A program made the translations under genes and the position numbers. A stretch of 64,000 nt of DNA from Bacteroidales bacterium (GTDB lineage: Bacteria; Bacteroidota; Bacteroidia; Bacteroidales; FEN-979). The stretch is taken from the NCBI GenBank assembly GCA_025355465.1, contig JANXZO010000025.1:6286-70285 (forward strand), in the 5' to 3' direction. Shown here in pieces: positions 5,826-21,193 of this stretch (position 1 is its first letter; every line of letters starts with the position of its first letter). The notes beneath the pieces were generated by a model. The model was not told the origin of the DNA. It made no database searches and saw only the letters and a program-made list of their open reading frames with translations.

Positions 5826-7010
5826 ATGCAACGTGAATCTGGCACCCAAAAATTTTGGTTTATCATCCTGGTGGCAATGTTTGTCTTACAGGAAGGGATT
5901 GCCCAGGATGGCCAGACTGTGCAGGAAGGACAGATGTATGGACTGGGAGTTATTCCCATTGCAGGGGGAACTTATTTTTGGCATGTATTCAAAGACCATA
6001 CGCTCCAGACAGAGGCCGATACTTCGGAGGTTGTGTTCCCATCGGGAAATGAGGGTTCTTCCGTTCCAGTCGTCTGGTTGAAAAGCGGCCTCTATTACTT
6101 CACTGTTTCGGCTGAGAATGAGCGCGGTTGTTCCAATCTGAAGGTGGGGATGATCACCGTGGATGCCTTGTCCATGTTGCTTCCCACGATCAGAATCAGA
6201 TTGGACAAGAACCCTGTTTGTGCGGGAACCAAGGTCAGATTTTGGGCCTTGACCACCAATCAGGGGCTTGATGCCAAGTTTCGCTGGTATAAAAATGGCC
6301 GGATTGTCGGTACCGACTGGCCAAACTATTCGGACAGCACGCTGGCTGATAACGATCGGATCAGTTGTATCATGACACAATTACCAACCCGCTCCACAGA
6401 TGACCCCCTAAGTGCACAATCTAATGAGCTCATTGTAACTGTTTACACCACAGAAGCTGGATTTTCGATTCGGGAGAAGGGAGGCGGATCCACCGGAAGC
6501 ATTTCTCTGATCAACCAATCGACCGGAGCTGATGAGTACGACTGGGACCTCGGCAACGGGTTTTCGTCGATGCTGGAAAATCCTGAGATCTCGTATACGG
6601 AAGACGGAATCTACCTGATCAGACTTGTGGCGCGGAAGGTTGGCTACTGTGCTGATACGGCAGAGATAAAATACCGGATGATGTTCAAAGGGTTGTATAT
6701 CCCCAATGCATTTGCACCTGGTGCAACCACTGGATTACCCGGTGTATTCAAACCTGCCGGAATCAACCTGAAGCGGTTTAAGATCGAAATATTTGATAAT
6801 TGGGGTCATCCTTTGTGGCAATCAACAGCCCTGGATGAGAGCGGAATACCAACCGAATCATGGGATGGAACCTACCTGGGCAGGCTGATGCCACAGGATA
6901 CATATCTGTGGAAAGCAGAGGCGGAGTTCACGGACGGTACAGTTTGGGAAGGTTCTGATATCGGGAAAGGGGCGGCTAAGACGATAGGCACTGTTACTTT
7001 ACTGAGATAA
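5826..7010 (+). CDS. T9SS type-B sorting-domain protein (gliding-motility-associated C-terminal domain) with a PKD-like module
   Basis: The C-terminus YIPNAFAPGATTGLPGVFKPAG...FKIEIFDNWGHPLWQS...WDGTYLGRLMPQDTYLWKAE matches the PNAF-x-PNGDG...IFNRWG...WDG...G-x-Y type-B CTD pattern. The internal segment INQSTGADEYDWDLGNG is PKD-like. Confidence 0.8.
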   Translation: MQRESGTQKFWFIILVAMFVLQEGIAQDGQTVQEGQMYGLGVIPIAGGTYFWHVFKDHTLQTEADTSEVVFPSGNEGSSVPVVWLKSGLYYFTVSAENERGCSNLKVGMITVDALSMLLPTIRIRLDKNPVCAGTKVRFWALTTNQGLDAKFRWYKNGRIVGTDWPNYSDSTLADNDRISCIMTQLPTRSTDDPLSAQSNELIVTVYTTEAGFSIREKGGGSTGSISLINQSTGADEYDWDLGNGFSSMLENPEISYTEDGIYLIRLVARKVGYCADTAEIKYRMMFKGLYIPNAFAPGATTGLPGVFKPAGINLKRFKIEIFDNWGHPLWQSTALDESGIPTESWDGTYLGRLMPQDTYLWKAEAEFTDGTVWEGSDIGKGAAKTIGTVTLLR

Positions 7011-7024
7011 AGCAGGAGGAAGAG

Positions 7025-8128
7025 ATGAGACACAATTCCTTATTTGCCGTAACCATTTTTATCGGGATGATGTTTGCAGTTATTGAAGTAAGGGCGCAGG
7101 ATCCCAACTATTCGCAGTGGTTAAACGCCCCGTTGTATTATAACCCGGCCTATACCGGCCTCAACAGCGGATTACGGGCAAGACTCTCTTGCCGGGATCA
7201 GTGGCCGAACCTCCCGGTGGATTTTAAAACCATGTATTTTTCGGCTGATTTCGGAGACAGGAACCTGCCCGGTTCGGGTGGAATAGGACTGCATGTAAAC
7301 CGCGACAATGAAGGCATCGGGTTTATAAAGAACCTCTCTGTTGCGTTGGCACTTTCGGTGCGGATTCCAATTTTCTATAACATTATCTGTCAGGTAGGAC
7401 TAAAAGGCGCTTTGATGCAGAAATGGCTTCAGTGGAGTGATTTTGTTTTCAGTGATCAGCTCAGCAACAAATACGGTAATATATATTCCACGCAGATGCC
7501 GGCACCGGAAGCACAGTCGAGGCTATCGCCGGATTTTGGAGTGGGTGGACTGATGCAGCTCATCAATAATGCAGGCAATCTTACCATCACTGCGGGATGT
7601 GCGGTCGATCATATATTCCAGCCCGACCAATCCTTTATCTCGGTAATCAGGGCGCCGCTGCCCAGGAAGTATGTCGGTCATCTTGATATGGTTATTACGC
7701 TGGGGAACGGGCCAAACTCTTCACAAAATCCGGTCAAAGGATTTGCGGACCCATTGCGGCTTAATCCCGGGATCATTTATCAGAACCAGAATAACCTCAG
7801 CTCAATACAGGTGGGGGTAAATGCATTAAAATACAATATCTACCTGGGGGGGTATCTAAAAGCGACATCGGTTTACGGGCCTACTACTTCGTTGATGGTG
7901 CTGGCAGGCTACCGATACATCGCATCACCGACAACAAATATCAAATTCATGTACAGTTACGACATTCAGGTGTCAAAGAACCTGCAGGGCACCGGAGGCG
8001 CGCACGAAATAAGCCTGATCATTGAATTCAAAGGATTGCAGGTAGCCGGACGAAACCGATTCCGTACCTGTACCACGGAGACCGGCCCGGACAGGAATCC
8101 AGCCTACCTGGAGTGTAGTCCATTTTAA
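7025..8128 (+). CDS. PorP/SprF-family type IX secretion system membrane protein
   Basis: Signal peptide followed by the hallmark QDPNYSQWLNAPLYYNPAYTGL. The C-terminal HEISLIIEF block and terminal CSPF are typical of the family. It sits immediately downstream of a type-B CTD gene, the usual arrangement. Confidence 0.85.
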   Translation: MRHNSLFAVTIFIGMMFAVIEVRAQDPNYSQWLNAPLYYNPAYTGLNSGLRARLSCRDQWPNLPVDFKTMYFSADFGDRNLPGSGGIGLHVNRDNEGIGFIKNLSVALALSVRIPIFYNIICQVGLKGALMQKWLQWSDFVFSDQLSNKYGNIYSTQMPAPEAQSRLSPDFGVGGLMQLINNAGNLTITAGCAVDHIFQPDQSFISVIRAPLPRKYVGHLDMVITLGNGPNSSQNPVKGFADPLRLNPGIIYQNQNNLSSIQVGVNALKYNIYLGGYLKATSVYGPTTSLMVLAGYRYIASPTTNIKFMYSYDIQVSKNLQGTGGAHEISLIIEFKGLQVAGRNRFRTCTTETGPDRNPAYLECSPF

Positions 8129-8130
8129 AA

Positions 8131-8154
8131 ATGGTGAAATGGTGAAATGGTGAA
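8131..8154. repeat. Three perfect tandem copies of the octamer atggtgaa
   Basis: Read directly: atggtgaa at 8131-8138, 8139-8146 and 8147-8154, just after the PorP/SprF stop codon. Confidence 0.9.
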
Positions 8155-8235
8155 AATTTGTCACGCGACACGCTTCATGCGACACCTTTTTCTGAATTAA
8201 TTTCAAATTTAATTAGCAGATTTCAGGATAAGTTG

Positions 8236-8243
8236 TACTTTTG
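8236..8243 (+). promoter_or_regulatory. Bacteroidota-type -7 promoter box upstream of tRNA-Leu(CAG)
   Basis: TACTTTTG matches TAnnTTTG and lies 13 nt upstream of the tRNA 5' end. Confidence 0.35.
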
Positions 8244-8255
8244 CACCCCCAAGAA

Positions 8256-8339
8256 GCCCGGATGGCGGAATTGGTAGACGCGCTAGTTTCAGGGACTAGT
8301 ATCCTTAAGGATGTGCAGGTTCGAGTCCTGTTCCGGGCA
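8256..8339 (+). tRNA. tRNA-Leu (anticodon CAG), class II; CCA not encoded
   Basis: Acceptor stem GCCCGGA/TCCGGGC with discriminator A. Anticodon stem CTAGT/ACTAG with loop TTCAGGG. T-arm GGTTCGAGTCC. Long variable arm. Confidence 0.9.
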
Positions 8340-8357
8340 CCGGGATGTAAAATAAAA

Positions 8358-9060: not shown

Positions 9061-10221
9061 ATGAAAATCATAATTAAACTTTACCGGAATTGCCCCAGGG
9101 TGAAAGTCATCTGGCCAATTGTTGTTTTATTTCTCACCCTTGGCGGGATAGATACATTTTCGCAAATGGTACCATCCAAAACTCCCAGAGCACCGTGGAA
9201 GGTAAGGCATGATGCGGACGGTTCTGACAAATTCCGTTCAGTTGGTCCATGGGGCAGACCTCGAGGCCGGGTGCGACCTGCTATTCTGGTTCTTGATAAT
9301 CAGCGGTTTAACCTGTTGTTGATGCGGAGGGGAAACACCGTGACCGTGTTAACAAAGGGAGGTGTATTGGTGGCGGGTAAAATAGAACGGATAAATCGAG
9401 ATACCCTTTTTCTAACCGGTGGTGTTGTTACGGTTGCAGAATTGGATAAGCTCTGGCAGCCAAGGAATCCCGGGCCCCGAGAATTGCTTCGCGGAGAGCT
9501 TAGTCCTGCCTATGTGGCCGATTCCGGCGATTGGCAGATAATCATTCCACCCGACAGCGTATTCCGATATTCCGGCACCTAGAAAAATTATCTTTATAAA
9601 CAACAAAGGGCCATCAAGGCAGAAAAGCTTGAGTCGCAAAATCCCCTCACCAAAAAGAACTTCCTCAAATGGAATGTAGCCAAGGCAGCCCACCTTGAAG
9701 TTGCATTTGCCTATGAGCGCCTTATTAACGACCACTTTACATGGGAGACAGAGCTTAGTGCGATCTTCGGGATACAATCGGCGGATGCCTATTACACCAT
9801 GCCGATGCCGCTGTACAATTACAATGGATTTTCGGTGACCACCTATCCCAAATTCTTTGTTATTAATCCACGCACCTACGTTTCATTTGTTTTTATGTAC
9901 CGATACCTGTGGGCTACCGGTATCCGCACCGACTGGCCCGAACCTCCGCACAACGGGAAGTTACAGGTCCAGTATCGCAACGACTTTGGATTTAGTCTGC
10001 GGTTGGGAATGATGCGAAATTACCACGGGTTGGTGGTAGACTGGTATATAGGTGGTGGTTTGAAATATATCATGCTGCACCAGTTGGTTTACGGATCTTA
10101 TCACTATCACGACAGCGGCAGTATGGAATGGTACAACACGGACCATTCTCCCCGAATTCAGGATCAGAACCTATGGGCCCCTGTGATTAACCTGGGTCTG
10201 AAAATTGGCTTCGGATTCTGA
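9061..10221 (+). pseudogene. Outer-membrane beta-barrel-like protein gene interrupted by a single in-frame TAG (9580-9582)
   Basis: ORFs 9061-9582 and 9799-10221 share one frame. The 72 codons from 9583 to 9798 have no stop and no ATG/GTG/TTG. The upstream part carries the signal peptide. The downstream part ends in GLKIGFGF, with the aromatic terminus typical of beta-barrels. Confidence 0.5.
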
Positions 10222-10407
10222 CTTATTTCCTCAACCCGTTATCTGATCCACACTTTTTAGCGGTGCATATGATGGACTAAAACCATGATTAATTGAACGA
10301 TTACGAATGATGGATTGTGTTGGAGGCGGAGGTGTCCGGATAGGAGCGGAAAGGTTCGGATTTATAAATCGGTACGACGAATTCCCTTGTATTACTTGAC
10401 ATCTGAA

Positions 10408-10415
10408 TACTTTTG
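10408..10415 (+). promoter_or_regulatory. Bacteroidota-type -7 promoter box ahead of the 10441-16184 operon
   Basis: TACTTTTG matches TAnnTTTG and lies 26 nt upstream of ATG 10441, at the end of a 219-nt intergenic gap. Confidence 0.35.
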
Positions 10416-10440
10416 CCCTGAAACCTGTAAAATCTATCCG

Positions 10441-11430
10441 ATGAAAAACCAAATGAAACAATGCCTTATTGTTATTCTCTGTACCTGTGCCCTGCTTGGT
10501 ATTCAGGACCTCACTTTCGCCCTTGATCATGCATCGGCTGCAGCTACCATTCAAACATCTCCTTCCGACCCTGTCGTTTCTTCTGCACCTTTAAGTGCGC
10601 CTAAGGAGGAATCACTTGGCGCCACCGTTTGGTATTACATAAAAGGAATTGCCATCCTTGGCTTTTTTGCTTTTGCCGTAGTATACATTGCCATAACCCT
10701 GATGAAGAAACCGAAGTTTGTACCGGTAACCCTCGATCAAATGAAGGCAAAACGGCGTTCACAGGGAAAACCTGAATCTTCCGTGATCGACAACGAAGCC
10801 GCACAAATCGATGTAGGCCAGGCATTTAATACATGGCAAATTGTTTCAAAACCTGGAGAGGAGGAGTTTCGGAGTCCGTTGAGCATGAGTCAGATCACCA
10901 CTTCTCATGGTTGTCTCGATTCAGCAATTCGTTCGCTGCCTACGGATCCTGACATCATTAATAATATCAACGACCTGGGCGAAATTCTGAACAACCAGAT
11001 AAAACGTCGGTTTACCGGTTCCATGAAGCTGATCTACTGTGCACTTGCAGTTTGTGTACTGGCATACCTGACAAGCAAAGGATTTGGTCAGTTTTTTAAA
11101 CATTACTGGTGGCTTCCGGCATCCATCGTTCTTTATTATTTCGCAAGTTATTCGCCTGAATTTCTGAACACCAAGCGCGAACGCTGGTTCCGTGGGTTTA
11201 ACATCCACAATGTGCTTATTGGAACCATCCTCGGGTTATTTGCATCTACTTCGGTTACAGATACCTATAAAACTACTTACAGCGATGGCTCTACGAAAAA
11301 GACCGAAGAGTGGAATGTGATGTTTTTTATCATGACCGCATTGACACTCATCGTCATTGTCGTCCTCGGTTTCTTCATCTTTCTTTTTGCAGGATTGAAC
11401 TTTGTTCGCAACTACCTTATATACGTCTGA
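10441..11430 (+). CDS. Polytopic membrane protein of unknown function
   Basis: Signal-like N-terminus MKNQMKQCLIVILCTCALLG, then about 5 further hydrophobic helices separated by a roughly 110-aa soluble loop. No recognisable family motif. The ORF-track start 10315 was rejected in favour of ATG 10441, which lies behind the promoter box. Confidence 0.6.
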   Translation: MKNQMKQCLIVILCTCALLGIQDLTFALDHASAAATIQTSPSDPVVSSAPLSAPKEESLGATVWYYIKGIAILGFFAFAVVYIAITLMKKPKFVPVTLDQMKAKRRSQGKPESSVIDNEAAQIDVGQAFNTWQIVSKPGEEEFRSPLSMSQITTSHGCLDSAIRSLPTDPDIINNINDLGEILNNQIKRRFTGSMKLIYCALAVCVLAYLTSKGFGQFFKHYWWLPASIVLYYFASYSPEFLNTKRERWFRGFNIHNVLIGTILGLFASTSVTDTYKTTYSDGSTKKTEEWNVMFFIMTALTLIVIVVLGFFIFLFAGLNFVRNYLIYV

Positions 11431-11444
11431 TAAAACCCGATATC

Positions 11445-13088
11445 ATGAAAAGGATTACGATTTTTTTCTTGTTGGCCATAATCATACCCGTCCTGACGGC
11501 CCAGGAAGTGGATATTAAGAAAGGCTTAATTGCTAACTATCCGCTCGACGGGAAGACAGGCGACCTGACCGGGAAGAATAAGAACGGCAAAATTTTCGGC
11601 GCTGTGGCCACAACTGGTCGTGATGGCAAGGAGGGAGGCGCCTTCCGGTTTAAGGCCAAAGGTGATAGTTATATCACTTTACCTGTGAGCGCAAGTCCCG
11701 ATAAAGTTCCCATTATCACCGTAACCGCCTGGGTTCAGGCAACAGGAACCACCAGTTCTTATCCACTGATTGCCTGCGGGATCAATAAGGAAACGCGGTC
11801 TGTTTATATGAACCATGAAGGGAGTGTTTATCACTGGTATCTGAATGGTGGTGGTGATGGTGCCATCATGGGGCCGGCCATATTTACAAAAAAATGGGTG
11901 TTCGTCGCCATGATGTACGATGATAAAAATAAGGAGGCACGTTTTGTTGTTGGCAGTGAGCTATTTAAAGGTAAGGCCTCCATTCGCAGCGGAGATCCTG
12001 GCATCATGATTGGAAATTTCGATGGCGACATTGATGAGCTGCGCGTGTACGACCGGTTTCTCAACCTGGCTGAACTTGAATCACTGGCTGGCGGAAAGAT
12101 TAATGCAACCCAGGAGGACCTTGTGACAGTTGACCGCTATGCTTACAAGAAGGACCGTGAAAAGGCAGAAGCTGCCGAGGTACAACCCGGTGACGTATAT
12201 ATCATCAATACCAGCGAGTTTGTCATACACGATTCTGCCGGAGGCTGGGGCCAGAAGGCTTTGCTGAAGCAGGGTGACACCCTCCGGGTAGATTCCGTTA
12301 TCGGTAAATACCTGAAAGTCATTTTTATGGGTGGCGAATATGGGTATGTATCGCGCGGAACCTTGCAAGACAATGCCTATCCCGAAGGAGACAGCAGTCT
12401 CGGCCATTCAACAAAGGTGACCATGAAGCATATTTTCGATTTTACCAGTATCCGTTCATGGATAATAGTGGTGGTGTGTGCGCTGATCCTGTTCATGGTC
12501 AAGAAAAAATTCCTGATGCTGGATGAAATGTTGAACAAGCTGAGGAAGAAGGACATGTACTCCTCAGGTGGCTCAAAGTCAGGTGCAATGGCCGTAAAGC
12601 GAACGGTACTGGACAACATTTTTCCGATCGAAAGACTCCGGTGGTGGCCTATCATTCCCGGTGCCATTGCAGGTATTGCTCTGTTTATTGCCTTGATGGT
12701 CAACAGCGGGGAAACGGAATGGTTTTTTGCCCAGGGGTTCCACCTCATCCCGGCCGGCTACGACAAGTGGGTGCACTGGTTGCTGTTCAGTATGGTGTGG
12801 ATGCTGATCTTCGCTTTTGTGGCGATTGCCCTTGAAAGTTACGTGGTAACAGGTCCCATCATCATGTGGCTAAGGATTTTCATACTCATCATTCTAAACC
12901 TCATGGCTTTTGCGGTGGCTATTTACCTGGCCGTTGTTGTTGTCGTTATTTCTATCGTCATGCTGGTTCTTACCATGCTGGGATCCGGAAGTTCCAACTA
13001 TAAATGTCCCCATTGCGGAGGTACTTTCAGCGGCTCCAGAGGAAGTTCCTACACCTGTCCTCACTGCGGAGGTGGCGTATCTACCTGA
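11445..13088 (+). CDS. Membrane protein: signal peptide - LamG/concanavalin-like lectin domain - SH3b-like domain - 4-5 TM helices - C-terminal CPHCGG-x13-CPHCGG zinc ribbon
   Basis: MKRITIFFLLAIIIPVLTAQ signal. GDIDELRVYDRFLNLAELESL is the characteristic LamG end motif. GDVYIIN...GDTLRVDSVIGKYLKVIFMGGEYGYVSRGTL is SH3b-like. A hydrophobic block spans aa ~385-520. The terminal sequence is YKCPHCGGTFSGSRGSSYTCPHCGG. It starts 14 nt after the previous stop. Confidence 0.7.
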   Translation: MKRITIFFLLAIIIPVLTAQEVDIKKGLIANYPLDGKTGDLTGKNKNGKIFGAVATTGRDGKEGGAFRFKAKGDSYITLPVSASPDKVPIITVTAWVQATGTTSSYPLIACGINKETRSVYMNHEGSVYHWYLNGGGDGAIMGPAIFTKKWVFVAMMYDDKNKEARFVVGSELFKGKASIRSGDPGIMIGNFDGDIDELRVYDRFLNLAELESLAGGKINATQEDLVTVDRYAYKKDREKAEAAEVQPGDVYIINTSEFVIHDSAGGWGQKALLKQGDTLRVDSVIGKYLKVIFMGGEYGYVSRGTLQDNAYPEGDSSLGHSTKVTMKHIFDFTSIRSWIIVVVCALILFMVKKKFLMLDEMLNKLRKKDMYSSGGSKSGAMAVKRTVLDNIFPIERLRWWPIIPGAIAGIALFIALMVNSGETEWFFAQGFHLIPAGYDKWVHWLLFSMVWMLIFAFVAIALESYVVTGPIIMWLRIFILIILNLMAFAVAIYLAVVVVVISIVMLVLTMLGSGSSNYKCPHCGGTFSGSRGSSYTCPHCGGGVST

Positions 13089-13115
13089 TCCTAATTTTAT
13101 CTTAAATTTCAAATT

Positions 13116-16100
13116 ATGCCAACCAGCGAATATATTACCTCCCGTGCTTTTCCCGAGAAAAAAATAGAAGAGATATGGGGTAACGGAGCAACGATAAGCG
13201 GTTTGACTTATGGCAAAGGGGCCTGGACATTATACATATGTTATGATGGTTCATATGAAAATCAGCATTACTGGACCCGCTCCGATTTTCCTGAACAGTG
13301 CATAACAGAAGGCTGGAACAAAGGACTCGATATAACCGAACTCAGCTGGTGCAACGACAACTGGCTGCTGGTTATGTCGAGTAACACCGGCTTCACCGAC
13401 CAGGTTTGGAGGTTGGGGAGCAAATTCCCGATGAAGGAGGTGGAGAAGGCATGGAATGAAGGTTATTCGGTAACCAGGATCGGATATGGCAATGGTAAAT
13501 GGTTTGCCGTGTTGTCGAAGGGGAGTGGATTATCGGTGCAAACTGCTACTTTTTTCAGTGATTTCCCGGAGAAGGCAATCGACAAAGCCTGGGAAGATGG
13601 TCGGGTCATCACCGACCTGGTATTTGGTGACGGAAAATGGCTGTTGGTGACCTCGGTTTCCGATGTGCCTGAAACACAATCATGGGCCAGCGACTCACTT
13701 TATCCGGGCAAGGTAACCGACGAAAGGCTCGCGGAGGGTTACAATATCAACCGGATCAGTTTCGGCAACGGGATATGGGCGGCTGTTTTCGGACAACCTG
13801 TGGAAGAAGATGAAGATGAAGACGATGTGGAAGCATCTGAGGAGGAGGAAGAGGACAAAGAGGTAAAGGGAGAGAAGGCCCGGGCCACCGGTGGCGGGAA
13901 AAAACCAGAATTAAAACATGATAAAATGGCCATTCAGTATACAGACCTGGCCATTTCGCAGTGGGAAAAGGAGAACTTGGATGAGGCCATTGCAATGTAT
14001 ATGAAGGCCCTGGAGATTGAACCCGGGTTCGTTCTGGCGCTCAGCGGACTGGGCTCGGTTTGGCTGGCCAAAGGAAACGAGGGAAAGGCCATCGAATATT
14101 TGCAAAAAGCTTACGACCTTGATCCGGCAGATGACCCGTCTACCTTTATTGAGCTCATCTCACTTTATGCTTCCGCTGAAGCGGATGATAAGCTGATGGC
14201 CGTGGTTGCCGCATTTCCTGCCGAAGAACTGGAGAAGGTTGATAATCCTGATACCTTCGTTGAAATAGGGGAGGTTTTTGAGCGGACCAGGAAATTCCGG
14301 AAGGCGGTTCAGTTCTATAAGCGGGCCAGTGATTTAAAACCTGGCAACAAGGAGTATGCAGCCGATCTGAAACGCGCTCAGGAAGCCGCAAAAGCCAACA
14401 GCGTAGCGGAAAACGAAGAGGAGAAGAAAGCAACGGCAACCGGTCCGCCACCGGCCAATGTTCCGTCGTTGGCGACTGTTGATGAGGTAATCGGCGAACT
14501 TAACAACCTTATCGGATTAAAAGAGATAAAAAATGATGTGCAGTCGTTGCTCAAATACATCAAGGTTGAGAAAATGCGCGCGGAAAGGGGCATGTCTTCG
14601 AATCCTATCTCCCTGCATACGGTATTCTCGGGTCCTCCGGGCACGGGGAAAACCACTGTTGCAAGGTTGCTCGGTAAGATCTTCAAAGCCACCGGACTAC
14701 TTGCCAAGGGGCACGTTGTGGAGGTGGACCGTTCGGGCCTTGTGGCAGAATACATCGGACAAACGGCAGTAAAGACGAATGCGGCGGTAGATTCTGCACT
14801 CGACGGGATTCTCTTCATTGATGAGGCGTACGCCTTGTTTCGTGGTGATGGCGGCAGTGATTTCGGAAAGGAGGCGATCGATACGCTGATCAAGCGTATG
14901 GAGGATGACCGCGGTCGATTGGTTGTCATCGTTGCCGGCTATATCGAGGAGATGAAACATTTTATCGACAGTAACCCCGGAATGCAATCACGGTTCAACC
15001 GCTATTTTTATTTCAAGGATTATACGCCGGATGAGTTGCAGGAGATATTCGAAAGGACTTGCAGCCAGAAAGAGTATAAGTTGGCTCCGGATGCGCAGGA
15101 TAAACTGAAACGGTATTTTCAGTTTATCTATAAATCGCGATTGAAGAGTTTTGGCAATGCAAGGGTAATCCGAAACCAGTTTGAGGAGTTGATCAGGATA
15201 CAATCGACACGTATCGCAGATTATACCGAAATTCAGCATGATGACCTGAATACCATCACCCTGGCTGATGTAAATGCCGCAGTGGATGATGAATTCGTGG
15301 AAGAGACCCCCGAAACCCTGGAAGACATTATGAAAGATCTGAACGGGATGGTGGGCATGGAGAATGTTAAAAAAGATGTGGGGATGCTGATCAACTACAT
15401 CAGGATTGAGAAGATGCGCCAGGAAAAGGGGTTGTCGAATAACCCTGTAGCTTTACATACTGTATTTTATGGACCTCCAGGAACCGGAAAAACTACCGTG
15501 GCAAGGTTGATCGGAAGGATATTTAAAACGCTTGGGATCCTGGCAAAGGGTCATGTCGTGGAGGTTGCCCGTGCCGATTTGGTTGGGGAATATGTGGGAC
15601 ATACCGCGCCCAAAACCAGCAAGGCCATTGACGATGCACTACATGGTATTTTGTTCATCGATGAGGCTTATACGCTAAAGCCGGAAGGGATGGGCAATGA
15701 TTTCGGACAGGAGGCCATCGACTGTTTACTGAAGCGGATGGAGGATGACCGTGACAAGCTGGTTGTTGTAGTTGCAGGCTATACGGATGAAATGAAGCGG
15801 CTCATTGACTCAAATCCGGGTTTGAAATCGCGATTCAACAGGTATTTTTATTTTGAAGACTATGAACCGGCTGAATTGCTTGCCATGTTTACCCGTCTTG
15901 TTGATGCGAAAGGCTATAAACTTACCCCGGAAGCCAGGGAGCATTCGGAAGTTTTGTTTCAAAAAGTTTTCGATGCCCGCGACAAAAGCTTTGGCAACGG
16001 ACGGTTCGTGAGAAACCTGTTTGAACAGATGATCCAGGGCCAGGCCAACAGGATTTCATTATTGCCATCCATCACGGAAGATGAGCTTGTGGTGCTCGGG

Positions 16101-16184
16101 ATCGACGATGTGAAAGAGGTGGCTGCAAAGTACGTCAGTATGCCCCGGTCGGCAGGAAAACCTATTGGTTTCAGGAAAGATTGA
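13116..16184 (+). CDS. Large cytoplasmic protein: five 46-aa repeats - acidic linker - TPR region - two tandem CbbX/SpoVK-type AAA+ ATPase modules
   Basis: Both modules are intact. Walker A: SGPPGTGKTTVARL and YGPPGTGKTTVARL. Walker B: ILFIDEAYAL and ILFIDEAYTL. Also VVIVAGY / VVVVAGY and SRFNRYFYF in each. TPR-like helices run from AIAMYMKALEIEP to AVQFYKRASDLKP. Confidence 0.85.
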   Translation: MPTSEYITSRAFPEKKIEEIWGNGATISGLTYGKGAWTLYICYDGSYENQHYWTRSDFPEQCITEGWNKGLDITELSWCNDNWLLVMSSNTGFTDQVWRLGSKFPMKEVEKAWNEGYSVTRIGYGNGKWFAVLSKGSGLSVQTATFFSDFPEKAIDKAWEDGRVITDLVFGDGKWLLVTSVSDVPETQSWASDSLYPGKVTDERLAEGYNINRISFGNGIWAAVFGQPVEEDEDEDDVEASEEEEEDKEVKGEKARATGGGKKPELKHDKMAIQYTDLAISQWEKENLDEAIAMYMKALEIEPGFVLALSGLGSVWLAKGNEGKAIEYLQKAYDLDPADDPSTFIELISLYASAEADDKLMAVVAAFPAEELEKVDNPDTFVEIGEVFERTRKFRKAVQFYKRASDLKPGNKEYAADLKRAQEAAKANSVAENEEEKKATATGPPPANVPSLATVDEVIGELNNLIGLKEIKNDVQSLLKYIKVEKMRAERGMSSNPISLHTVFSGPPGTGKTTVARLLGKIFKATGLLAKGHVVEVDRSGLVAEYIGQTAVKTNAAVDSALDGILFIDEAYALFRGDGGSDFGKEAIDTLIKRMEDDRGRLVVIVAGYIEEMKHFIDSNPGMQSRFNRYFYFKDYTPDELQEIFERTCSQKEYKLAPDAQDKLKRYFQFIYKSRLKSFGNARVIRNQFEELIRIQSTRIADYTEIQHDDLNTITLADVNAAVDDEFVEETPETLEDIMKDLNGMVGMENVKKDVGMLINYIRIEKMRQEKGLSNNPVALHTVFYGPPGTGKTTVARLIGRIFKTLGILAKGHVVEVARADLVGEYVGHTAPKTSKAIDDALHGILFIDEAYTLKPEGMGNDFGQEAIDCLLKRMEDDRDKLVVVVAGYTDEMKRLIDSNPGLKSRFNRYFYFEDYEPAELLAMFTRLVDAKGYKLTPEAREHSEVLFQKVFDARDKSFGNGRFVRNLFEQMIQGQANRISLLPSITEDELVVLGIDDVKEVAAKYVSMPRSAGKPIGFRKD

Positions 16185-16189
16185 GTTGA

Positions 16190-18001
16190 TTACGCAGAGT
16201 AGTTCCTGCCCTCCAATCCGTCCGTAAGTTTTTCTGCTTTGAGTTCAGGGGCGTTGATCTGTTTTGCCGACTGCTGGTAAAATGAAGGAGTAACCCCGGT
16301 TATTGTCTTGAATGCACTGTTGAAGGCTGATTTTGAATTATAGCCGACGGTTTGTGCAATTCCTTCAATAGACAGATTCCCATATGCCGGATCCGCGAGC
16401 AGCTTTCGGGCTTCCCTGATGCGGTAATCATTAAGGAACTGGCTGAAATTTTGCGACGATCGATCGTTGATGATGCGCGATAGGTAAGAGGTGTTCGTGT
16501 TCAGTTCCCTGGCTACATCGGCCAGGGTGAGACCCGGATCAAGAAATCGTTTTCCGACCTTCATGATGTGAAGAAGAGCTTTGTACAACCGCTCCTGCAG
16601 CTCATCCGGAAGCGAAGGATGGATCATGCTTTTTGAGGTGGGTGCTGAGGCAGATGAGGCCGTGCGGATCGCATGCAGGGTGCGTTGAACCTGCTGTTCC
16701 TCCCCCAGTTCAGTTTTCATGGTTTCCATGTCTTTACGCACCAGTTCCCTGTATGTGCTTAATTTGTCGCGGTAGGCACGAATTGTGAACCAGGAAGCTG
16801 TAAGGATTAATACGATCGTAGCCAGCATGGCTGCTATCAACGCTTGTTTTCGCTGAATATTCGCTGTGTTTATTTTGTTGTCGGATTGGAGCCTGGTGAT
16901 CTCCTGCTCCTTTAAAGTCAGGTTGTACCGTGTTTTAATCTCTGCAACGGTACGCAGTCTCTTTTCTTCAAGCAGCGTGTCTTTCAGAGTGATGTATTTC
17001 CGAAGATAGCTGAGTGCCAGTGCAGGTTGATTTTTTTGTTCATAATAACCGGCGATTTTCTCCAACCCGTATAGCTCCTGTTGCCTGTAGTTTAATATTT
17101 TGGAAAGTTCAAGATTTCTGAGCAGCATTTTAATGGATTCCCGGTCATTTCCGGTTTTTTTATAGTACCCGGCCAGTGAGGAGCAGGAGATGCACATGCT
17201 TAGCGGATCGTTTGCTAATGTGGCTGTTTTCAGGGCTTCGCTGTAAAAGTGAAATGCCTTTTCAGACTCTCCCTGGAGGAAATAGACCTCGCCGATGTTG
17301 TTGAGGGTAAACGCAATTCCCTGGTAATCTTTTACGTGCCTTCTTAACGCCAATGAATTATCGAAATAATAACGGGCAGAATCATAACGATCCAGATGCA
17401 GGTTGTACATTCCCAGCGTGTTGTAAACATATCCGCGGGCAGTATCATTGTTCACTTTTTTTACTGTTGCAAGTGCCCGGTAAAGGAAACTGCCGGTGTT
17501 TTCAGGTCCGCTGATCTCAGAAAGGTTCACCAGCATCATCGCTTTGGCGAGGTCGTTGTGTTGTTGCTCCGCCATTTTTAGTGCCCGGAGTTGCAATTGC
17601 AATGATTTCTCTGCAAATCCCATATCCTTATAGAGGACGCCTAAAAAATTCAGGGCGTAGATGATCGTTTTCCGATCGCCTGCCTGATCGAAATACTGAA
17701 TTGATTTTTCCCCAAGCAATATCGCGTCGCTGAATTTATTTTTCAGCTTTGCGATCCGGGCCAGCTTATAGTAAACATCACCAAGACTGGCGTAATTACT
17801 GTTTCGTGCCAACCGGGGAATAAGCCGGTGATAATATTGTACGGCAGTTTTTGTATCCTGCTTCTGAAGGTAAAAGTTGCCTAGTTTCAGGAGGATCTCC
17901 GGATTTGTTCCTTCCGGGCTGTTATAAGGCCCGGGTGCCAGGCTGGTCAGTAGTACGAAGAGCAGGGGAAGTTGGAAATAGCAGCGGCAGTATGTGAGCA
18001 T
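16190..18001 (-). CDS. TPR-repeat / single-TM / AraC-family HTH transcriptional regulator
   Basis: Signal-like N-terminus, about 8 TPR-like repeats, the TM helix ALIAAMLATIVLILTASWFTI, and a C-terminal AraC HTH (LADVARELNTNTSYLSRII...IEGIAQTVGYNSKSAFNSAFKTITGVTPSFY). Start set at ATG 18001 to avoid overlap with the neighbouring gene. Confidence 0.8.
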   Translation of the reverse strand: MLTYCRCYFQLPLLFVLLTSLAPGPYNSPEGTNPEILLKLGNFYLQKQDTKTAVQYYHRLIPRLARNSNYASLGDVYYKLARIAKLKNKFSDAILLGEKSIQYFDQAGDRKTIIYALNFLGVLYKDMGFAEKSLQLQLRALKMAEQQHNDLAKAMMLVNLSEISGPENTGSFLYRALATVKKVNNDTARGYVYNTLGMYNLHLDRYDSARYYFDNSLALRRHVKDYQGIAFTLNNIGEVYFLQGESEKAFHFYSEALKTATLANDPLSMCISCSSLAGYYKKTGNDRESIKMLLRNLELSKILNYRQQELYGLEKIAGYYEQKNQPALALSYLRKYITLKDTLLEEKRLRTVAEIKTRYNLTLKEQEITRLQSDNKINTANIQRKQALIAAMLATIVLILTASWFTIRAYRDKLSTYRELVRKDMETMKTELGEEQQVQRTLHAIRTASSASAPTSKSMIHPSLPDELQERLYKALLHIMKVGKRFLDPGLTLADVARELNTNTSYLSRIINDRSSQNFSQFLNDYRIREARKLLADPAYGNLSIEGIAQTVGYNSKSAFNSAFKTITGVTPSFYQQSAKQINAPELKAEKLTDGLEGRNYSA

Positions 18002-18018
18002 TGAATGGAAACTTGTGG

Positions 18019-18399
18019 TTATTCTTTGTAAAATTCCCACAGCTCGCCAAAATAACTGTGGTTCCATCCTTCTACGAAATCCTTATATTCATCGTCGGGG
18101 ATGTTGGTATGTAAGAGTTCAACGGAAGTGCCTGATTTGTGCGGGTGAAGCGTGATGGTCACAATGGATTCCTCTTCCTGGTCGCCGAAATACCATTGCT
18201 GAACGATCTGCCGGTTCTCTTCAAATGAGATGTTTCTTCCGGTAATACTGCCATCCCACAAAGAAAATTCAGAACCGGGTTCTGTTGACATTTCAGCTGC
18301 TTCCCCTGTCCAGAGTTGAAGGGTTACCGGATTGGTGAGGGCTTTGTAGACATCTGCCGGCGGAGCGGCGATGGTAAAATATTTTTTATACTCTTTCAT
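18019..18399 (-). CDS. SRPBCC-superfamily protein (AHSA1 / activator of Hsp90 ATPase homolog-like)
   Basis: 126 aa. The pattern FTIAAPPADVYKALTNP...LQLWTG...GSEFSLWDGSITG...QQW is typical of the AHSA1-type SRPBCC fold. Confidence 0.75.
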   Translation of the reverse strand: MKEYKKYFTIAAPPADVYKALTNPVTLQLWTGEAAEMSTEPGSEFSLWDGSITGRNISFEENRQIVQQWYFGDQEEESIVTITLHPHKSGTSVELLHTNIPDDEYKDFVEGWNHSYFGELWEFYKE

Positions 18400-18517
18400 G
18401 GATTATGCAAGATTACGTGTGATCAGTTGTTACCGTAAAGGTATAAAAAGTGCGGGTCTAAAATACAATCCCATAAAATTGGTAAATTGCAGCCACAAAA
18501 TTGTAAATTCCAATCCG

Positions 18518-19546
18518 ATGAAATTCACTGCAATCCAGATATCGGCCATGCTGAACGGGGTAATTGAAGGCAACCCCGAAGCAACGGTGTCAAAACTTTC
18601 CAAAATTGAGGAAGGTGAACCCGGTTCTCTTACATTCCTTGCCAATCCGCTGTATACACAATATATTTATACCACGGATGCCTCCATAGCCATTGTCGGA
18701 AAATCTTTTGTGGCCGAGCGTCCCGTTAAGGTAACCCTGGTGAAGGTTGACAATCCGGAAATTGCATTTGCAAAGCTTCTTGAGATCTATAACCAGATCA
18801 AAAATAACAAGACAGGAATTTCATCCCTGGCTTTCATTTCGGATTCGGCTGCCATTGGAGAGAATGTCTATGTTGGTGAATTTGCAGTTATCGGAGAAGG
18901 GGTTGTGATCGGCAACAACGTGAAGATACACCCCCATGTGAGTATTGCGGAAAATACGGTTATCGGCGACAACACGATCCTCTTTGCCGGGGTGAAGATA
19001 TATTCTGACAACCAGATCGGAAAGAATTGCGTGATTCATGCAGGAACGGTGATTGGAAGCGACGGATTCAGGTTTGCACAGGGCCCGGAGGGCAACACGA
19101 AAATAGCGCAGATCGGAAATGTGCTGATCGAAGATGATGTGGAAACCGGTGCCAATTGCACGATCGACAGGGCCACTCTGGGGTCGACAATCCTCCGGAA
19201 AGGGGTGAAACTCGACAACCTTGTCCATATTGCCCACAATGTGGAGGTTGGCGAAAATACTGTCATGGCAGCAGGCACGGGTGTAGCAGGTTCGACAAAG
19301 ATCGGGAAGAACTGTCTGATCAGCGGACACGTCTCCTTTACCGGCCATATTACCATTGCTGACGGTACCCAACTGGGCGGCGCCACAGGCGTTTCTAAAA
19401 GTTTAATCAAACCAGGCCAGGCATACCTCGGATCCCCTGCACTGGAGGCAAGCAAGTTCAGGAAATCGTATGTCTATTTTAGAAACTTTCCCGAAATTAT
19501 TGCGCGGCTGGAACGGCTGGAGAAACTCGAAAAAGAGCGGAAATAG
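18518..19546 (+). CDS. lpxD: UDP-3-O-acylglucosamine N-acyltransferase
   Basis: N-terminal MKFTAIQISAMLNGVIEGNPEATVSKLSKIEEGEPGSLTFLANPLYTQY, followed by long hexapeptide (left-handed beta-helix) repeats and a C-terminal helical tail. ATG 18518 is preferred over the ORF-track start 18371. Confidence 0.9.
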   Translation: MKFTAIQISAMLNGVIEGNPEATVSKLSKIEEGEPGSLTFLANPLYTQYIYTTDASIAIVGKSFVAERPVKVTLVKVDNPEIAFAKLLEIYNQIKNNKTGISSLAFISDSAAIGENVYVGEFAVIGEGVVIGNNVKIHPHVSIAENTVIGDNTILFAGVKIYSDNQIGKNCVIHAGTVIGSDGFRFAQGPEGNTKIAQIGNVLIEDDVETGANCTIDRATLGSTILRKGVKLDNLVHIAHNVEVGENTVMAAGTGVAGSTKIGKNCLISGHVSFTGHITIADGTQLGGATGVSKSLIKPGQAYLGSPALEASKFRKSYVYFRNFPEIIARLERLEKLEKERK

Positions 19547-19550
19547 CTGA

Positions 19551-21164
19551 TTAATTCTTTTTCTGGTAAAGTGTACAATAGACTGTTTTGTAGGCCACTA
19601 CAAATTCCGTTGAGAGAATGTGATCGATTTTTTCCCAGTTGTCGGTGTTGACCGGATTGCATCCACCAACCAGGAAAACATAATTTATCTTACGGAACGG
19701 CTTCCCCTTGGTATGTTCAAATTTTATTAGCCTTCGGTGAACGCCCGGGTTTCCCAGGTAGTAATTTGGTTTGTCTTCCTGGTTTGTACGTACCGGAAAA
19801 AAACCTGTTTCGCATTCGTAATTGTAAAGCATCACCATTGGCTTATCGATAGCTATGTAGTCGACAAAATGGCCAATGAACCAGTTGTCCATGCAGTATA
19901 TGGGAAGTAAAACGCTATTCGGAGCTACAAAATCGGATGCCTTGTTGCAGGAGATGGCAATCTGTTCAAGTTCCAGAACTTTGCTCTCTTTCATGCTCAG
20001 GAGTGAAAAGTTGAGGTAGATTGCCAACACTGCCGCCACAAGGCCGGTATAGATGTACAAACGTGAAGCCGCAATCCATAAAATCAGGAGCAGGAAGGCA
20101 ATAAATCCCAGTCGGTAGGTTGTATAACTCGCACTTCCCATCGCATCAGGTAATGTAAAGTACAATCCCATCAGAAATACAATCGACAAAAATATCCAGC
20201 CGGAATAAAATCCGGGCGTGTGATTACTTTCTGAAATTTCTTTTGGTTTGATGATATTCCTGACAAATTTATAGGTGCGGAAGATCAACGCGATAAGAGC
20301 AAAAACCACAATCAACCGAAATAAGAGATACGTAAGTTTTCCCTCCCTGATCCCATCAAAGACGATGAGCGGCTGCATGTTCAGAAGGTTGTTCAGGAGA
20401 GTCTGGAATGGCAGATGGATGATGCCGCCGGAGCCTGGCCGCGACAGAAAAAAGTAGAAGAAAAGCAGCAGCGGTAAGGCTGAGGCAATAACTACCTGAA
20501 TCGATTGCCTGATCAAACCGTCCACTGATTTCCTAAGCCCCTTTTTATTATAGGCGAGATCGTAGAAGGCTGAAGACAGAATGTAGCAGGCAATGATTAC
20601 CAGGAGTGCACCGAAGGCAAGGATATGAGAGAAATAGGTGAGGGTGATCAATCCGGCCAGGCGCAACAGATTCCAGGGTTTTTCCATCACCCCGACCCTC
20701 CTGACCCAGAAGGTAAGCGTGATCAATAAGAAAATTATGGCGATACAGAAGTTGTAAAAACCGAAATAGAAAAACATTGACTGTAGGAACGGGAAAATCA
20801 GATATGCATAAAAAATATTGTTGGGCGCAATCGTCCGAAGGAGGCTGCGGAAAGCAAAAGGTGTTCCGGCCAGCAGGATCAGGAGAAGAATTTTTTCGGC
20901 CAGAAAGGCGGGCAGGATCAACCCGGTAACGGAAAGGATGAGGTGGGCGGTCCAGTTTGGCACCGGCTCCGGATTTATCATGAAGAACTGCCGGATAAGT
21001 TCATTGTGACAAACTATGATCTGGCTGATGATTTTGGCGTTGCTCATGTGCGAAGCGCCGTCGAGGGTAGGAAAAAAGTGCAGCGCAAGAAACGGGTACA
21101 GGTTGAATAGGGTAATCAGGGTGAAAACCAACAATTCAAGCCTTTGTCCGGTCAGTTTTTTCAC
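19551..21164 (-). CDS. Polytopic integral membrane protein, function unknown (N-terminal ~390 aa with more than 10 TM helices plus a C-terminal soluble domain)
   Basis: Hydrophobicity pattern only. The architecture resembles GT-C-like or YfhO-like membrane proteins, but no diagnostic motif was recognised. Confidence 0.55.
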   Translation of the reverse strand: MKKLTGQRLELLVFTLITLFNLYPFLALHFFPTLDGASHMSNAKIISQIIVCHNELIRQFFMINPEPVPNWTAHLILSVTGLILPAFLAEKILLLILLAGTPFAFRSLLRTIAPNNIFYAYLIFPFLQSMFFYFGFYNFCIAIIFLLITLTFWVRRVGVMEKPWNLLRLAGLITLTYFSHILAFGALLVIIACYILSSAFYDLAYNKKGLRKSVDGLIRQSIQVVIASALPLLLFFYFFLSRPGSGGIIHLPFQTLLNNLLNMQPLIVFDGIREGKLTYLLFRLIVVFALIALIFRTYKFVRNIIKPKEISESNHTPGFYSGWIFLSIVFLMGLYFTLPDAMGSASYTTYRLGFIAFLLLILWIAASRLYIYTGLVAAVLAIYLNFSLLSMKESKVLELEQIAISCNKASDFVAPNSVLLPIYCMDNWFIGHFVDYIAIDKPMVMLYNYECETGFFPVRTNQEDKPNYYLGNPGVHRRLIKFEHTKGKPFRKINYVFLVGGCNPVNTDNWEKIDHILSTEFVVAYKTVYCTLYQKKN

Positions 21165-21193
21165 AGTCTCAACTTTGGTTAAACAAATGGCAT

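Follow-up and report, generated by a model that had tools for sequence, protein, structure and literature searches.

What might an operon do that encodes two polytopic membrane proteins, one of them with a lectin-type domain, followed by a large protein with two AAA+ motors? We asked this of three adjacent genes, here called G1, G2, and G3, in a stretch of 64,000 nucleotides from a Bacteroidales bacterium (GenBank assembly GCA_025355465.1, contig JANXZO010000025.1), hereafter the window. An original prediction, made from the letters of the window alone, had described the genes as a probably co-transcribed trio whose architecture suggested a trans-envelope machine. We conclude that they belong to a real, rare, and undescribed Bacteroidota operon with a constant core, G2 then G3. 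No description of this gene combination was found in PADLOC, NCBIfam, or the literature searched, including the text of PMC11513918, and the earlier remark that the combination matches no recognized system stands.

The core of the operon is an obligate G2-G3 pair

We scanned metagenomes with an alignment of G2 and obtained 67 loci. Open reading frames (ORFs) were clustered over 47 operon loci, and palindromes were searched for in 88 fetched loci. G3 lay directly downstream in 29 of the 29 metagenome loci that had both a G2 with transmembrane (TM) helices and downstream DNA, and in all loci from genomes and contigs. It was found beside none of the LamG-only relatives of G2 (0 of 35 loci). The G2 and G3 proteins have diverged to 28-40% identity across the paired loci, and their order is unchanged. 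This comparison of loci shows that the invariant unit is an obligate G2-G3 gene pair.

G1 behaves differently. It was present in 24 of the 47 operon loci; in the metagenome set it occurred in 12 of 32 loci and was missing from 14 that included upstream DNA. A membrane protein of 119-120 residues with a DUF6232 domain holds the first position in 9 of the 47 loci, and some loci have neither gene. We conclude that G1 is, by its distribution, a lineage-specific accessory gene. As a proposed unit, the trio holds for G2 and G3 but not for G1, which is missing from at least 14 loci with upstream DNA and is replaced by DUF6232 in 9.

The layout in the window is compact, with 14 nt between G1 and G2 and 27 nt between G2 and G3 (Table 1). 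Gaps of 3-27 nt separate the genes in most related loci, and an upstream -7 box is common to them. The ORFs and the sequence bear out the three genes, both gaps, and the TAnnTTTG box given in the original prediction. Comparison with related loci also favors its suggestion of co-transcription, and it supports G1-G2-G3 as a co-directional, tightly spaced, conserved unit with a conserved promoter.

Table 1. Features of the operon region, in window coordinates
Feature	Position	Strand	Size or placement	Basis
Palindrome GATTTATAAATC (perfect, 12 bp), candidate operator	10359-10370			upstream alignment of G1 regions
TTG, possible -33 element of a Bacteroidota-type promoter	10387-10389	+	18 nt before -7 box	
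TAnnTTTG (-7) box TACTTTTG	10408-10415	+	33 nt before G1 ATG	
G1	10441-11430	+	329 aa	ORF list and sequence
G2	11445-13088	+	547 aa	ORF list and sequence
G3	13116-16184	+	1022 aa	ORF list and sequence
REG	16190-18067	-	625 aa, convergent to operon	

Clustering of ORFs over the 47 loci gave no further conserved neighbors beyond G1, the DUF6232 gene, and a regulator gene described below (REG). The other recurring clusters were antisense shadows of conserved genes or reflected synteny within one clade. Among these neighbors in the 47 loci we found no conserved gene for an outer-membrane or other envelope component, and the proposed trans-envelope machine is unsupported.

G3 itself varies at a few loci, which we designate by number. 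In L004 it is split into a DUF7477-TPR gene (435 aa) and a gene with two AAA modules (536 aa; L004:11660-14690). The L012 protein (L012:12613-14832) has a single AAA module. In L016 and L027, G3 (L016:12719-13999) is truncated to 426 aa, with an AAA region that lacks the P-loop part; these copies may be decaying.

Architecture of the three proteins

G3 consists of DUF7477 repeats (residues 1-230), an acidic linker (~228-262), TPRs (~270-440), and two AAA+ modules, D1 (~455-722) and D2 (~735-1010). Pfam searches identified DUF7477 (117.4 bits; cutoff 27), TPRs, and two copies of AAA with AAA_lid_6. The domain content supports the prediction that G3 is a cytoplasmic protein in which a protein-interaction front end precedes two AAA+ motors. 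In all ~30 homologs, both D1 and D2 keep the motifs GxPGTGKT and hhhhDE, a [YF][IV]G pore loop, a GY sensor-1, an NxGxxxRF Arg finger, and a GN[AG]R sensor-2. Because these motor motifs are kept in both modules, both rings appear to be under selection, and evidently both are functional. Two intact motors of the CbbX/SpoVK type had been proposed originally, and the motif conservation agrees.

The best solved relatives of the G3 modules are CbbX (6e-55; 3syk/3zuh) and EccA1 (3e-53; 9lur). Two features of the clade that holds SpoVK, EccA, and CbbX are found in both modules. The GY sensor-1 takes the form [IV][VA]AGY in D1 and D2 of nearly all homologs, and the sensor-2 Arg lies in FGNAR (D1) and FGNGR (D2), aligned to FANAR of CbbX. 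A third, an Asn ahead of the Arg finger, is a possible match: the Asn is present in NPGMQSRF (D1) and NPGLKSRF (D2), with an invariant Arg at N+6; position N+4 is Q/K/A/E/S/T/R in the G3 family and Arg in CbbX (NPGFRSR).

Scores against the individual family models fall short of their cutoffs. Single modules of G3 reach 298.5 and 291.7 bits against SpoVK (TIGR02881; cutoff 422.95), a family of sporulating Bacillota with a short N-domain, whereas the host here belongs to the Bacteroidota. They reach 256 and 257 bits against EccA (TIGR03922; cutoff 466.65), aligning to positions ~262-552 of the model only, and 231 and 228 bits against CbbX (TIGR02880; cutoff 459.25). We rejected G3 as a SpoVK or EccA equivalog: its whole-protein NCBIfam scores pass (580 bits for SpoVK) only by summing the two modules. 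We found no type VII secretion system (T7SS) genes in any locus and no Rubisco genes near the window operon or the compared loci. We therefore assign G3, from its motifs and scores, to the SpoVK-EccA-CbbX clade as the text of PMC11513918 describes it, and to none of the three named families. The likeness to EccA that had been pointed out earlier holds at the level of the clade but not of the family, with a per-module score of 256 vs 467, an unmatched TPR region, and no T7SS context.

The text of PMC11513918 portrays the members of this clade as dedicated chaperones with few substrates and no peptidase partners, in which variable N-domains recruit the client. Just three clients are known for the clade, namely Rubisco, MurG, and substrates of the T7SS. 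The activity of MurG is promoted by SpoVK, which is itself under control through the LysM domain of SpoVID; EccA1 has an effect on mycolic-acid enzymes (PMC11513918).

The N-terminal repeats of G3, originally listed as 46-residue repeats, are the Pfam family DUF7477 (PF24289), and it had been overlooked that this named family has a solved structural relative, 7tpu. An AlphaFold2 (AF2) model of residues 1-240 contains five E-H-E-E units at a pLDDT of 89. The only meaningful PDB match in a Foldseek search was 7tpu_A (TMq 0.66, probability 0.98), the fungal polyglycine hydrolase Fvan-cmp. By Pfam score and predicted fold, the N-domain of G3 is a DUF7477/polyglycine-hydrolase N-domain. That of Fvan-cmp is built from five quasi-identical EHEE repeats of 44 residues each; it represents a novel fold found in all kingdoms, and its function, which the authors call unknown, possibly lies in exosite or protein-protein binding (PMC9912923).

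We surveyed the other proteins that carry DUF7477. A word-indexed protein search with G3 residues 1-240 (window 13116-13835) returned no match, not even the window's own protein. An exhaustive phmmer search found 847 clusters of carriers at 50% identity, so negatives from indexed searches do not mean absence for repeat domains such as this one. Among 75 sampled carriers, DUF7477 was partnered with caspase (13), Ser/Thr kinase (12), astacin (4), TPRs (6), and AAA+ (4). The best 150 carriers included 80 with signal-like N-termini, 12 with a kinase-TM-DUF7477 order, and 9 with a P-loop AAA domain. Given its range of fusion partners, DUF7477 looks like a portable recognition module, mostly extracytoplasmic, with G3 among its few cytoplasmic settings.

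Two groups of carriers stood out. P0038, P0057, P0101, and P0117 lack TM helices and have TIR-like N-terminal motifs ('FISYSHKD', 'FISHAYEDK') recognized by eye and by regular expression; if these assignments are true, they would put DUF7477 in cytoplasmic immune-type proteins. P0082, P0105, and P0148 (1011-1139 aa) represent a second AAA-bearing DUF7477 architecture, with a P-loop motif, an N-terminus that appears TPR-like by eye, and DUF7477 repeats in mid-protein (~270-400).

G2, with 11 matches among 5.8 billion sequences, begins with a signal peptide. A LamG/ConA-like domain (~49-210), a helix, and an SH3-like barrel (~251-314) follow, and TM helices are predicted at 336-354, 401-419, 442-469, and 471-513. 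Laminin_G_3 scores 46 bits (cutoff 27.6), and all 10 homologs match it. The AF2 model, made with 9 homologs as input, has a mean pLDDT of 70; it shows a jelly roll at 49-202, a helix between it and the six-stranded small barrel (251-314), and short C-terminal strands. The Foldseek matches were ConA-like and LamG folds only (BoNT Hc/NTNH, the trans-sialidase lectin domain, pentraxins, laminin LG, and CBM66). The ectodomain belongs, by Pfam score and modelled fold, to the Laminin_G_3/ConA-like lectin superfamily and may bind sugars. This agrees with the LamG domain of the original prediction, as hydropathy and the AF2 helices do with a protein that spans the membrane several times. It had also been stated that the ectodomain lies outside the cell; in a diderm Bacteroidota cell it faces the periplasm. 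For the membrane domain, the whole-protein Foldseek search, dominated by LamG, was uninformative, and a profile search of PDB sequences returned LamG matches and zinc-finger noise only.

The SH3-like call for G2 is plausible. The AF2 model places six short strands at 251-303 with a pLDDT of ~80-85, and this barrel fits the SH3b-like domain proposed earlier, but SH3_3 (PF08239) matched just 3 of the 10 homologs, all below threshold, with an E value of 0.012 at best. No SH3 structure was among the listed Foldseek matches, which LamG dominates. The C-terminal tail carries a CPHCGG..CPHCGG motif (519-543), whose four cysteines (C521, C524, C538, and C541) do not vary among 10 homologs. All matches of zinc-ribbon Pfam models to this tail were below their cutoffs. 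The zinc ribbon proposed there is consistent with the four invariant Cys where the motif exists, but some orthologs lack the motif. We do not favor the zinc ribbon and the TPRs of G3 as a docking pair, since each is dispensable in some lineages.

The loop at 355-399 is probably cytoplasmic because it contains ~10 Lys/Arg residues; it also holds an invariant GGSKS within GGSKSG. The loop at 420-441 is acidic, and the C-terminal tail has a net positive charge. Going by the positive-inside rule alone, we infer that this tail is cytoplasmic.

G1 has a signal-like N-terminus, a short variable low-complexity stretch in the periplasm, a first TM helix, and a cytoplasmic domain of ~107 residues. Its C-terminus is hydrophobic, with about four TM helices predicted from hydropathy and an alignment of 21 homologs. 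The motifs GSxKL, YYFAS, KRxRWF..NxHN, and FAGxNFxRNY are invariant. A profile search of Pfam, NCBIfam, and PDB sequences gave no match. Only 22 matches were found among 5.8 billion sequences, and the gene occurs in 9 of 185,579 species genomes, all of them uncultured Bacteroidota (metagenome-assembled genomes of Prolixibacteraceae and Bacteroidales). Paralogy between G1 and the membrane domain of G2 was rejected (hhalign probability 1.9%). The proteins found in place of G1 (the DUF6232 protein of 120 aa, a 166-aa protein in L021, and an 85-aa protein in L007) show no similarity to G1, G2, G3, or REG.

Promoter, palindrome, and a linked regulator

TAnnTTTG is the -7 promoter consensus of Bacteroidota. 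The motif is not enriched across the window, with 39 copies observed vs 40 expected, and there are zero further copies on either strand between 10416 and 18798. In orthologous loci the box lies either 33 or 34 nt or 82 to 87 nt before the ATG of G1. The copy at 10408 is more than a chance match, judging from the loci compared, because its position is kept in orthologous loci and relative to a palindrome upstream. This palindrome, GATTTATAAATC, is specific to this operon, has the extended consensus tGTxCG-GATTTATAAATC-CxAAC, and is the sole copy in the window even with up to one mismatch allowed. Of the 88 fetched loci, 34 have an exact copy ahead of the operon's first gene, and 27 of these are distinct. 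In 16 distinct loci the palindrome is followed by the -7 box, which starts 49-50 nt downstream, a rigid layout in which 37-38 nt separate the two, and the fixed spacing extends to loci whose proteins are only 30-40% identical to those of the window. A TTG also recurs in many loci ~26-28 nt past the palindrome start; from this placement we infer a possible role as a -33 element. Scans for sigma-70-type promoters and terminators performed no better than on shuffled sequence, and an Rfam scan returned a tRNA-Leu only.

The original prediction missed both the palindrome and REG, a gene convergent to the operon for a regulator of the TPR-TM-AraC type. REG comprises a signal-like N-terminus, TPRs (TPR_12, 98 bits), a coiled coil, one TM helix, and an AraC-type HTH_18. 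Pfam places it in the AraC/XylS family (HTH_18, 68.2 bits, cutoff 33.6; HTH_AraC, 44.4 bits, cutoff 26.6). A homolog with 25-53% identity lies within ~6 kb of the operon in 25 of the 47 loci, in varying positions and orientations. REG and the palindrome co-vary: ~25 loci have both, and three lineages (L037, L045, and L046/L021) have neither. The exceptions are L004, with REG only, and L040 and L043, with the palindrome only. Because the presence of the palindrome tracks that of REG, the two point to a dedicated regulator-operator pair. We regard REG as a candidate membrane-bound one-component regulator of the operon and as the obvious candidate for binding the palindrome, with the stretch TGTTCGGATTTATAAATCCGAACA as a candidate operator. 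L002 contains a second exact copy of GATTTATAAATC (L002:1313-1324), 46 nt upstream of a 240-aa ORF (L002:1359-2081) that has no Pfam match, is divergent from a Peptidase_C39 gene, and lies ~3.5 kb from the operon. This ORF may thus belong to a regulon with the operon.

The genes farther out differ among loci. Upstream in the window (5826-8341) are genes for a protein with PKD and CHU_C (a type IX secretion signal) domains and for a PorP/SprF membrane protein of the type IX secretion system, which confirm the Bacteroidota host; a tRNA-Leu(CAG) gene lies at 8256-8341. None of these is kept beside the operon in other loci, and two nearer ORFs (9061-9582 and 9799-10221) have no Pfam match. Downstream, at 18019-19546 and 19551-23326, are genes for a small AHSA1/START-like protein (overlapping the start of REG), LpxD, a 537-aa polytopic protein with no Pfam match, and a 710-aa TPR protein. 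Among the loci examined, the first three recur in L001 only and the last in L001 and L002 only; by this distribution, these genes are local synteny outside the module. In L001 and L002, the two closest relatives of the window, genes for a CsgG-like protein and a caspase (Peptidase_C14) are divergent upstream of G1 (L001:2278-8746, L002:2093-4646). The window lacks CsgG-like and Peptidase_C14 genes; a fusion of DUF7477 to Peptidase_C14 accounts for the 13 caspase carriers among the 75 sampled.

Possible functions and relation to known systems

The reading that we prefer, with a probability of about 0.4, is that the operon encodes an inducible, dedicated inner-membrane chaperone-client module. 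REG would sense a periplasmic cue through its TPR domain and bind the palindrome centered ~44 bp upstream of the -7 box, turning the operon on. G3 would form a stacked double hexamer and dock by its DUF7477/TPR region on the cytoplasmic face of G2, at the K/R-rich GGSKSG loop, the C-terminal tail, or both, and also on G1 or the DUF6232 protein where present. It would then thread G2 with ATP so as to remodel, reset, or assemble it, not degrade it, much as its relatives act on Rubisco, MurG, and T7SS substrates; of known systems, the module would work most like these dedicated chaperones. Cytoplasmic ATP hydrolysis would in this way be coupled to the state of a periplasmic receptor that binds glycans or the cell wall. 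The contact between G2 and G3 is a prediction of this reading.

Several observations weigh against this assignment. G1 is optional, and one clade of G3 proteins of 821 aa lacks TPRs. L020 encodes a G3-like protein without G2, so G3 may have other clients. The G2 proteins of the L021/L046 type lack CxxC..CxxC and end in RRRY. The last hydrophobic segment of G2 is modelled as a single 43-residue helix, which leaves the side of the C-terminus uncertain, and the model is of moderate confidence, with the GGSKSG loop disordered. As most DUF7477 proteins look extracytoplasmic (80 of 150), a cytoplasmic role in G3 is an extrapolation. For the regulator, L040 and L043 have the palindrome and no REG within their flanks, so REG may not be the binder, and a perfect palindrome is not a classic AraC-family site.

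We weighed other readings against the same evidence. The operon could be an accessory to signalling, in which G2, as a co-sensor or anti-regulator, makes contact with the TPRs of REG in the periplasm, and G3 closes a feedback loop by resetting or extracting either G2 or REG. The output would then be transcriptional control by REG and not an envelope function of G2. The linkage of REG in 25 of 47 loci at varied positions and orientations fits this idea, as do the dedicated operator before the operon and the periplasmic placement of both the REG TPRs and the G2 ectodomain by signal-peptide and single-TM predictions. However, L037, L045, and L046 have G2-G3 with neither palindrome nor REG in 8-kb flanks. 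TPR-TM-AraC proteins are also common in Bacteroidota, so the linkage could partly be plain cis-regulation, and we consider such an accessory role unlikely. It is distinctly unlikely, in our view, that G3 resembles SpoVK in activating an unlinked cytoplasmic enzyme of envelope synthesis, with G2 only localizing or gating it by the state of periplasmic glycan or peptidoglycan, a part that the LysM protein SpoVID plays for SpoVK. Precedents within the clade, SpoVK-MurG-SpoVID and EccA1 with mycolic-acid enzymes (text of PMC11513918), speak for it, and the lectin-like and SH3b-like domains of G2 are typical of glycan or cell-wall binding. G3 exists without G2 in L020, and genes for a PBP4-type S13 peptidase and a C92 amidase-like protein adjoin the operon in one clade. 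These neighbors are kept within that clade only, however, and no biosynthetic enzyme co-occurs across clades in the 47 loci.

An anti-phage or conflict system, with G3 sensing an invader by DUF7477/TPR and G2, with or without G1, as a membrane effector, would account for the very patchy distribution (9 of 185,579 species genomes). Caspase and kinase domains are frequent fusion partners of DUF7477, a few carriers have TIR-like N-termini by eye, and caspase and CsgG genes adjoin the operon in L001 and L002. G3 also gives weak partial matches to IetA/IteA ATPase models, but the best of its PADLOC-DB 2.0 matches, IetA at 58 bits, covers part of one AAA module and is at the level of a generic AAA domain; G1 had one match at E 0.021 and G2 none. 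Phage records gave no match, and plasmids gave two weak ones in the LamG region only. The called flanking genes are ordinary housekeeping genes, with no integrase or other mobile-element gene among them, and the operon holds no nuclease, protease, or toxin effector. Its promoter, with a strictly kept candidate operator, would answer to a membrane regulator of an environment type. We judge a defense role improbable; the searches of PADLOC, phage, and plasmid records and a regulation of the housekeeping type speak against a mobile-element or defense origin. The TPR plus CbbX-type AAA+ arrangement and the polytopic membrane partners recall a secretion or export apparatus, in which an EccA-like G3 would deliver substrates to a G1/G2 membrane channel. 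This is very unlikely: no gene for a substrate, channel, coupling ATPase, or outer-membrane component is conserved across the 47 loci, some lineages do without G1 or the TPRs, and the single G3 modules stay below the EccA cutoff, with the TPR part unmatched. Fortuitous adjacency of unrelated genes with independent functions could be argued from the common domain types in each protein (LamG, TPR, AAA+). It is scarcely credible given that G2 and G3 adjoin in 29 of 29 loci at 28-40% identity, with their order kept, very short gaps between them, and both promoter and operator conserved.

A bolder version of the chaperone-client module is that G2-G3 is an ATP-powered inside-out transducer, in which the double-ring AAA+ protein grips the cytoplasmic loop or tail of G2 and does mechanical work. 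The grip would drive a conformational change, release, or turnover of the periplasmic head that binds glycans or the cell wall. We give this version only a small chance. Diderm bacteria normally power periplasmic events by energizers driven by the proton-motive force (TonB/Tol, GldLM). If true, the transducer would be a chaperone-type alternative to these energizers and would supply the first functional context for the widespread DUF7477/polyglycine-hydrolase N-domain fold.

The chaperone-client reading would matter in several ways. The operon would add a fourth, genetically well-defined context to the SpoVK/CbbX/EccA clade, and G3 would be the first tandem double-ring form of the clade paired obligately with a membrane protein. 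The combination of tandem modules, a DUF7477 head, and an obligate lectin-membrane partner is not described in the literature searched, the text of PMC11513918 included. The likely client is encoded immediately upstream, making the proposal directly testable. The DUF7477 fold is now placed in a defined bacterial operon, and the palindrome with its fixed -7 spacing offers a ready candidate regulator-operator pair in a phylum whose promoter control is poorly mapped. The significance is limited by the rarity of the operon, its confinement to uncultured Bacteroidota, and the fact that no phenotype can be inferred.

We compared the operon to known systems. G3 resembles the SpoVK/CbbX/EccA clade, which contains the best solved relatives of its modules, in its GY sensor-1 and sensor-2 Arg, possibly in the Asn ahead of the Arg finger, and also in having a variable N-terminal recruiting domain and no peptidase partner (as the text of PMC11513918 describes the clade). 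It differs in having two tandem modules in one chain and an obligate lectin-bearing membrane partner, and DUF7477 is not among the N-domain examples in that text. EccA of actinobacterial type VII secretion shares with G3 a TPR region followed by a CbbX-type AAA+ domain. However, EccA has a single AAA+ module, and its TPR/beta-helix N-region is unmatched by G3, which aligns from ~262. There are also no Ecc/Esx genes near the operon, the host is a diderm of the Bacteroidota, and half of the G3 family has no TPRs. In SpoVK-MurG-SpoVID(LysM), an AAA+ protein of the same clade is likewise tied to a protein with a cell-wall- or glycan-binding domain. Unlike G3, SpoVK has a single module and an N-domain of ~40 aa and is found in sporulating Bacillota only; here the glycan-binding-type domains are on polytopic G2 in the same operon, and no MurG link is seen.

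Two further likenesses concern single parts of the system. The N-domain of the fungal polyglycine hydrolase Fvan-cmp (7tpu) has, like G3, five quasi-identical E-H-E-E repeats of 44-46 residues. In polyglycine hydrolases the domain is exported from the cell and joined to a beta-lactamase-like protease, whereas in G3 it is predicted to be cytoplasmic and heads an AAA+ motor. FtsH, from the sister group of the clade, combines an AAA+ motor at the cytoplasmic face of the inner membrane with a periplasmic domain, as proposed for the G2-G3 pair. In contrast to FtsH, G3 has neither a protease domain nor a TM anchor, and the membrane and periplasmic parts are carried by a separate protein, G2.

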